Shown here: piece after piece, positions 1 through 201 of the stretch | Position numbering within the stretch: the stretch's first letter is position 1 | How the letters are laid out: every line of letters begins with the position of its first letter | DNA from: Escherichia coli | Lineage (GTDB): Bacteria > Pseudomonadota > Gammaproteobacteria > Enterobacterales > Enterobacteriaceae | Length of the DNA: 201 nt | Assembly: GCF_003334385.1 (NCBI RefSeq) | Contig: NZ_QOWN01000233.1 | Strand: one strand, 5' to 3' | Made by a program: the position numbers and the translations under genes | Notes under the pieces: model-generated | Told to the model about the DNA's origin: nothing | The model's database searches: none | Seen by the model: the letters and a program-made list of their open reading frames with translations, nothing else

Positions 1-30
1 ACAGTCCGTCACCCCGTGCTCAAAGCGCCG
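1..30 (-). other. Probable N-terminal edge of the NlpC/P60 (C40) peptidase-like domain, with a candidate catalytic Cys encoded at window 1-3 (RRFEHGVTDC)
   Basis: Seen in sequence: minus-strand codons from 28-30 (CGG, Arg) down to 1-3 (TGT, Cys) encode RRFEHGVTDC. Established knowledge: NlpC/P60 enzymes use a Cys-His-His/Asp catalytic core with the Cys near the domain N-terminus, often preceded by Asp. Inference: the domain boundary and the catalytic role of this Cys cannot be confirmed because the rest of the domain, including the His, lies outside the window. Confidence 0.5.
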
Positions 31-201
31 TCCTGTCAGATGTGGCACACAGCGGAATTTGTGAATGTCACCCCGGCTGACCAGCCACCAGGGCAGTGCG
101 CTTTTTATCTGCAGCCGCCGGTCGGCCTCGCTCAGCCAGGGCAGACCACCGGGATGACTGTGGACCAGTGCCACAATCTCCCCCTGCATCTCTGCCCGCA
201 G
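1..201 (-). CDS. Internal fragment (5' and 3' ends both outside window) of a lambda gpK-like phage tail tip assembly protein K: JAB/MPN metallopeptidase-like domain followed by the start of an NlpC/P60 (C40) peptidase-like domain
   Basis: Seen in sequence: the minus-strand frame with codons 201-199, 198-196 and so on has no stop across all 67 codons. Third-codon-position GC is about 70% against about 63% overall, and CTG is the dominant Leu codon (7 times), as in enterobacterial coding sequence. The other two minus frames contain TGA stops. The translation carries the JAMM motif HSHPGGLPWLSEAD and ends in FEHGVTDC. Established knowledge: lambda K-family proteins combine an N-terminal JAB/MPN domain with a C-terminal NlpC/P60 domain. 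Inference: assignment to the K family is from motif and architecture recognition, not from a search. Confidence 0.85.
   Translation of the reverse strand, partial: MRAEMQGEIVALVHSHPGGLPWLSEADRRLQIKSALPWWLVSRGDIHKFRCVPHLTGRRFEHGVTDC
121..162 (-). other. JAMM/MPN+ zinc-coordinating motif H-x-H-x7-S-x2-D (His-Ser-His-Pro-Gly-Gly-Leu-Pro-Trp-Leu-Ser-Glu-Ala-Asp), apparently intact
   Basis: Seen in sequence: minus-strand codons CAC(160-162) AGT CAT(154-156) CCC GGT GGT CTG CCC TGG CTG AGC(130-132) GAG GCC GAC(121-123) give HSHPGGLPWLSEAD. The spacing matches the canonical JAMM signature exactly (two His, seven residues, Ser, two residues, Asp). The preceding residues IVALV (window 163-177) form the hydrophobic strand that usually leads into this motif in JAB domains. 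Confidence 0.8.

Follow-up and report, generated by a model that had tools for sequence, protein, structure and literature searches.

We find that a 201-nucleotide stretch of Escherichia coli DNA (assembly GCF_003334385.1, contig NZ_QOWN01000233.1; hereafter the window, meaning the whole stretch) comes from the interior of a lambda-like prophage's K gene. It encodes the final part of a JAMM metallopeptidase domain, then a short linker, then the 11 residues that open an NlpC/P60 domain; the last of these is that domain's conserved nucleophile cysteine. We put at about 85% the probability of the reading as a whole, in which the gene product is a lambda-type K protein that carries both a JAB and an NlpC/P60 domain, C121 is the nucleophile of the second domain, and the substrate is an intracellular tail-tip component. 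The features are as follows, with residues numbered in the full-length protein.

1 to 201, minus strand: homologue of lambda gpK (tail-tip assembly protein K; RefSeq 'C40 family peptidase'), residues 55-121, from the translation and from DNA and protein matches.
49 to 201, minus strand: JAB/JAMM metallopeptidase domain, C-terminal two-thirds (residues 55-105).
121 to 162, minus strand: JAMM zinc motif H68-S-H70-x7-S78-x2-D81, read from the sequence using the motif definition of PMC300881, with H68 at 160-162, H70 at 154-156, S78 at 130-132 and D81 at 121-123.
34 to 54, minus strand: inter-domain linker R104-C105-V-P-H-L-T110, Pro-rich, with the non-conserved Cys105 at 49-51, placed by the gap between the Pfam domains (105/111).
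1 to 33, minus strand: opening 11 residues of the NlpC/P60 (C40) domain, G111-R-R-F-E-H-G-V-T-D120-C121, placed by the NLPC_P60 start at 111.
1 to 6, minus strand: D120-C121, the predicted nucleophile Cys (1-3) and the conserved Asp before it (4-6), from conservation, alignment to Spr and a structural model.

Minus-strand frame 1 is free of stops over all 201 bases (translation LRAEMQGEIVALVHSHPGGLPWLSEADRRLQIKSALPWWLVSRGDIHKFRCVPHLTGRRFEHGVTDC) and includes the peptide quoted in an initial annotation of this DNA made from the letters alone. That annotation had placed a Cys codon at window 1-3, an Asp before it and the Cys of an FRCVP segment at 49-51, and translation bears out all three: ACA on the plus strand at 1-3 is TGT (Cys) on the minus strand, 4-6 reads GAC (Asp) and 49-51 reads TGT. 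The window protein is identical throughout to residues 55-121 of an annotated 247-amino-acid prophage protein, a match to PHROG 30 ('minor tail protein') was obtained with E 1.3e-160, and 17 of the 23 codons that differ from lambda K in this frame are synonymous (6 are non-synonymous). Because of this protein identity, the PHROG 30 match and the synonymous bias, the minus frame can be taken as genuine coding sequence rather than a chance open frame. Frame 1 of the plus strand is likewise open over the whole window, and a 30-amino-acid open reading frame (ORF) with an ATG start lies at 65-157. No homology evidence was found for either, and both were dismissed as antisense artefacts since homology and synonymous bias favour the minus frame.

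A megablast search against phages matched 223 records at up to 98.5% identity, comprising Shiga toxin-converting and lambdoid phages whose matched genes bear names such as 'tail tip assembly protein K' and 'tail assembly protein'. Among 5,426 complete E. coli genomes, 3,832 contain matches to the window as well, the best at 99.5% identity; a single genome holds as many as 13 copies, and their annotation is 'C40 family peptidase'. The K copy of E. coli 2012EL-2448 (L001:3839-4582) differs from the window by a single synonymous base, and its 247-amino-acid product, of which the window covers residues 55-121, was therefore used as the full-length proxy. This proxy is 90% identical to the K protein of re-sequenced lambda, which has the same length and the same JAB and NlpC/P60 domains, likewise has its gene between L and I of the tail operon, and carries an identical HKFRCVPHLTGRRFEHGVTDC segment. 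Within the window the two differ at 6 amino acids (for example S96 in the window for C96 in lambda), none of them a catalytic residue. The gene order is tape measure, M, (an ompC-like gene), L, K, I, J in 2012EL-2448 and H-M-L-K-I-J in phage vB_EcoS-569R3, so that the H-M-L-K-I-J order recurs in two loci and in lambda; the ompC-like gene between M and L sets the proxy prophage apart from lambda. With JAB and NlpC/P60 domains in a protein encoded between L and I, the gene belongs to the lambda gpK family (PHROG 30). As such the feature is already known and ordinary: prophages carry nearly identical copies of lambda K by the thousand, and this is one of them.

The initial annotation had proposed that the junction between a JAB domain and an NlpC/P60 domain lies within positions 1-60, and that K proteins combine two peptidase folds in one chain. 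Both points hold for the proxy, in which Pfam assigns Prok-JAB (PF14464) to residues 3-105 (E 9.7e-16) and NLPC_P60 (PF00877) to residues 111-224 (model positions 1-105 of 105, E 2.9e-13). Since the first match ends at 105 and the second begins at 111, the boundary falls at residues 105-111, or window 31-51. Relatives were drawn from 1.84 billion cluster representatives, 2,825 of which matched at E <= 0.001; conservation was counted over 106 aligned full-length divergent relatives (33-57% identity), and a cleaned set of 104 sequences (alignment A2) served for profiles and modelling. Position 108 in the linker is Pro in 70 of the 106. In an AlphaFold2 model built from A2 (mean predicted local distance difference test, pLDDT, 97.4; predicted template modelling score, pTM, 0.92), residues 104-113 lack regular secondary structure.

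The same annotation offered the Cys at window 1-3 as a candidate NlpC/P60 nucleophile, proposed a profile search together with a check for a downstream His and a polar third residue, and noted that the rest of the catalytic site would lie beyond the window. Residues past C121, including H187 and H199, do fall outside it and were read in homologues whose protein agrees with that of the window at every residue. Among the 106 relatives Cys is kept at 121 in 102, Asp at 120 in 103, His at 187 and at 199 in 104 each, and His at 200 in 99; in A2, D120 is invariant, and G111, R112 and C121 are at least 90% conserved. Single-sequence phmmer against PDB sequences gave only marginal NlpC/P60 matches (E 0.2-0.9) with the Cys region not convincingly aligned, so a family profile was needed. 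The A2 profile matched E. coli Spr/MepS (2K1G) at E 9e-8, pairing l-D-C-y-t-l of the K family with I-D-C-S-G-F of Spr, n-H-a-a-i-Y with R-H-V-G-I-Y, and i-l-H with F-V-H. The paired Spr chain residues are C33, H84 and H96, and the spacings of 51 and 12 are those of the Spr Cys-His-His triad. Over the Cys stretch this alignment scores only 7 bits by itself, and structural confirmation was therefore sought: in the model C121 opens helix 121-131, H187 opens strand 187-193 and H199 closes strand 196-199. Measured against PF00877 and MEROPS family C40, the full-length proxy thus has a profile match over the whole domain, a conserved Cys nucleophile where the core helix begins, a strand His followed about 10-12 residues on by a third polar residue (H187 and H199, in homologues) and a papain-like alpha+beta fold. 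These results support C121 as the predicted nucleophile, within a predicted triad C121-H187-H199, and uphold the proposal made for it.

The JAMM site is equally well kept. The motif E-x(n)-H-S/T-H-x7-S-x2-D that defines JAB/JAMM (MPN+, PF14464) proteins is present together with an MPN fold, and its residues recur in nearly all of the 106 relatives (E19 in 103, H68 in 104, H70 in 103, S78 in 96 with Thr in 7 more, D81 in 103). Both active sites are intact in 100 of the 104 A2 sequences. The A2 profile also matched the prokaryotic JAMM proteins 2KKS, 2KCQ and PfJAMM1 among PDB sequences (E 7e-14 to 4e-11). K passes the cut-off of none of the NCBIfam models; desampylase was considered and rejected at 30 bits against a cut-off of 130. 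For TIGR02219 (phage_NlpC_fam, 'putative phage cell wall peptidase') the score is 24.6 bits (E 2.9e-05) against a cut-off of 81.9, and K is accordingly a relative of this equivalog rather than a member.

A function for the second cysteine, C105 of FRCVP, as another nucleophile, a metal ligand or a disulfide partner is highly improbable. Lambda K and the 247-amino-acid homologue share it, and a structural disulfide (C74-C95) does exist near the zinc site of AfJAMM. Against this, position 105 is Pro in 73 of the 106 relatives and Cys in only 6, and both the Pfam gap and the model put it in the linker between the domains, beyond the last JAB strand. We compared C105 with the AfJAMM disulfide and with the 'semiconserved cysteine' of the JAMM paper and found no correspondence; the former equivalence fails because gpK has no Cys in the matching 71-77 loop, and neither C74 nor C95 is matched by C105. 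This residue is a lineage-specific position of the linker, without a catalytic role.

The domain pair of the lambda protein, called TAPK, has been described (Iyer, Burroughs and Aravind, 2006, PMC1779556, citing Anantharaman and Aravind, 2003), and lambda K was listed among JAMM proteins of unknown function (PMC300881). The adjacent TAPI has an N-terminal ubiquitin-like (Ubl) beta-grasp domain with a C-terminal Gly, and K was proposed to process I, with the cut behind the Ubl made by the JAB domain and a possible part for the NlpC/P60 domain as well (PMC1779556). By cryo-electron microscopy and mass spectrometry gpK was not detected in virions, and only residues 135-223 of gpI are modelled, as a plug in the tip lumen (PMC10721106); gpK was likewise not resolved in a 2025 study of Ur-lambda. 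A report of a 2025 conference talk (PMC12908700) states that gpK cuts the Ubl off gpI only once gpI engages other tip proteins. Our literature search found no primary paper on cleavage of gpI by gpK beyond this summary, and none on an NlpC/P60 substrate. From this literature, K would be a non-virion, non-structural assembly peptidase that removes the gpI Ubl.

We propose that K is a single cytoplasmic polypeptide in which two peptidase domains are joined by the short Pro-rich linker (104-110). The N-terminal JAB/JAMM zinc metallopeptidase would employ E19, H68, H70, S78 and D81; in the C-terminal papain-like cysteine peptidase, C121 begins the core helix, and H187, from the neighbouring strand, would activate it while being oriented itself by H199. 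Following the literature, the deubiquitinase-like JAB domain would remove the N-terminal Ubl of gpI after gpI docks in the tail-tip complex, and the NlpC/P60 domain would act inside the cell on a tail-tip protein or peptide, not on the cell wall. The NlpC/P60 site is probably catalytically active, because about 97% of divergent relatives keep its triad, a retention as strict as that of the zinc ligands. It is very unlikely that this domain is instead a dead scaffold, with C121 no working nucleophile, that does no more than bring gpI, or another tip protein, into place for JAB. Such a role would fit the conference report, which credits gpI cleavage to the JAB ('deubiquitinating') domain only, and the pTM value, which suggests that both domains make one rigid body; yet an inactivated domain is not expected to retain C121, H187 and H199 as these relatives do, at a level matching the JAMM ligands.

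As for the substrate, a tail-tip protein or peptide in the cytoplasm is most likely, since K lacks an export signal and is missing from virions. That the NlpC/P60 domain is a true cell-wall endopeptidase (gamma-D-Glu-mDAP type), used for tail passage through peptidoglycan or for lysis, is unlikely. The closest structural matches of residues 111-247 are all peptidoglycan endopeptidases (MepS/Spr, CwlO, LytE, Acd33800 and RipA), NlpC/P60 hydrolases are carried on other tails or baseplates (diffocin 8v3w_H, phi812 9euf_A), and there is the weak TIGR02219 match. Against these stand the failure to detect gpK in lambda virions or to resolve it in any tail structure, so that it could not act during infection, an N-terminus that is a JAB domain and not an export signal, a TIGR02219 score far under its cut-off, and the near-constant linkage between the ubiquitin-like gpI and the NlpC/P60 domain of K (PMC1779556). 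The support for a cell-wall role comes down to the identity of the nearest solved folds. Several points nevertheless weigh against our reading. Those same nearest structural relatives of the C-terminal half are one; the conference summary through which gpI cleavage is known is silent on the role of the NlpC/P60 domain; and because the window ends at C121, H187, H199 and the rest of the domain are known from homologues, and the source copy may be truncated or decayed.

K can be compared with two groups of known enzymes. The MEROPS C40 DL-endopeptidases Spr/MepS, CwlO, LytE and Acd33800 are about 20% identical to K, which reads DCY(T/S)L where Spr/MepS-type enzymes have DCSG(F/L). Unlike the latter, K lacks both signal peptide and lipobox, carries a fused JAB domain, and is cytoplasmic and absent from virions, which makes peptidoglycan an unlikely substrate. 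The prokaryotic JAMM peptidases with which it may be compared are JAMM1 of Pyrococcus furiosus, which acts with SAMP2, BilC and Cap3. K differs from these systems in that its Ubl substrate is the N-terminal domain of gpI, cut as a linear fusion in virion assembly, that E1/E2 conjugation machinery plays no part and that a second peptidase domain is fused to it.

Several annotations of K and its neighbours deserve comment. In the lambda reference (J02459/NC_001416) K is annotated with 199 amino acids and the start MSPEDW. The first ~45 K codons, including the JAB catalytic Glu in AESCGF, lie directly after L in another frame (L003:1129-1290; NC_001416 14128-14289). Where homologues read GAGGCGTATTT, NC_001416 reads GAGGC-TATTTC; on alignment, re-sequenced lambda records carry one extra base (LC730321, 48,503 bp), and PV340536 annotates a 247-amino-acid K. 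Because both homologues and re-sequenced lambda have this base, the 199-amino-acid form most likely reflects a one-base error or a strain-specific deletion in the 1982 sequence, although it is still in use in some papers (for example PMC7291167). In vB_EcoS-569R3, K (L002:2839-3696) is annotated as 858 nucleotides (285 amino acids) versus 744, extending 41 nucleotides into the annotated I, and its 3' end may be different or frameshifted relative to the 247-amino-acid form. Database proteins that join K to L (PF05100) or I (PF06805) were also seen (P0024, P0026, P0030, P0032, P0040, P0043, P0099 and P0109), and may be genuine fusions, or else the genes may be frameshifted or wrongly called; Iyer et al., 2006 (PMC1779556), mention prophages in which K is fused to I or I to J.

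In gene I of the proxy prophage the Lambda_tail_I Ubl ends in ...VPRLAGAGKGG; a hydrophobic linker rich in Gly and Ala comes next, and then a C-terminal domain. The gene I start in RefSeq, and for lambda in PV340536, is at a GTG/ATGA overlap with the K stop, from which the Pfam Lambda_tail_I match does not begin until model position 26 of 83. An ATG at L001:4480 gives a longer ORF of 226 amino acids (L001:4480-5160) that overlaps the last 103 nucleotides of K (4480-4582) in another frame, as in the lambda reference annotation; the first strands of the ubiquitin-like domain probably come from it. The ompC-annotated porin gene between M and L of E. coli 2012EL-2448 (L001:1770-2933), inside the tail operon, is absent from lambda and phage 569R3 and looks like a porin-encoding moron.

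As a discovery the window adds little, since the JAB and NlpC/P60 domains of lambda K were published in 2003-2006 and RefSeq already uses the name C40 family peptidase; a tool-free reading of a 21-residue segment did place the domain boundary and the catalytic Cys correctly. The biological question that it touches is the target of a strictly conserved Cys-His-His site in a tail assembly protein that is left out of the virion. We tentatively suggest that the NlpC/P60 half, with C121 as nucleophile, might be a second intracellular peptidase in a dual-protease assembly checkpoint rather than a cell-wall enzyme. It may act once JAB has cut and trim gpI in its Gly/Ala-rich linker, it may cleave gpH to gpH*, or it may replace the JAB domain in phages whose K has only NlpC/P60.
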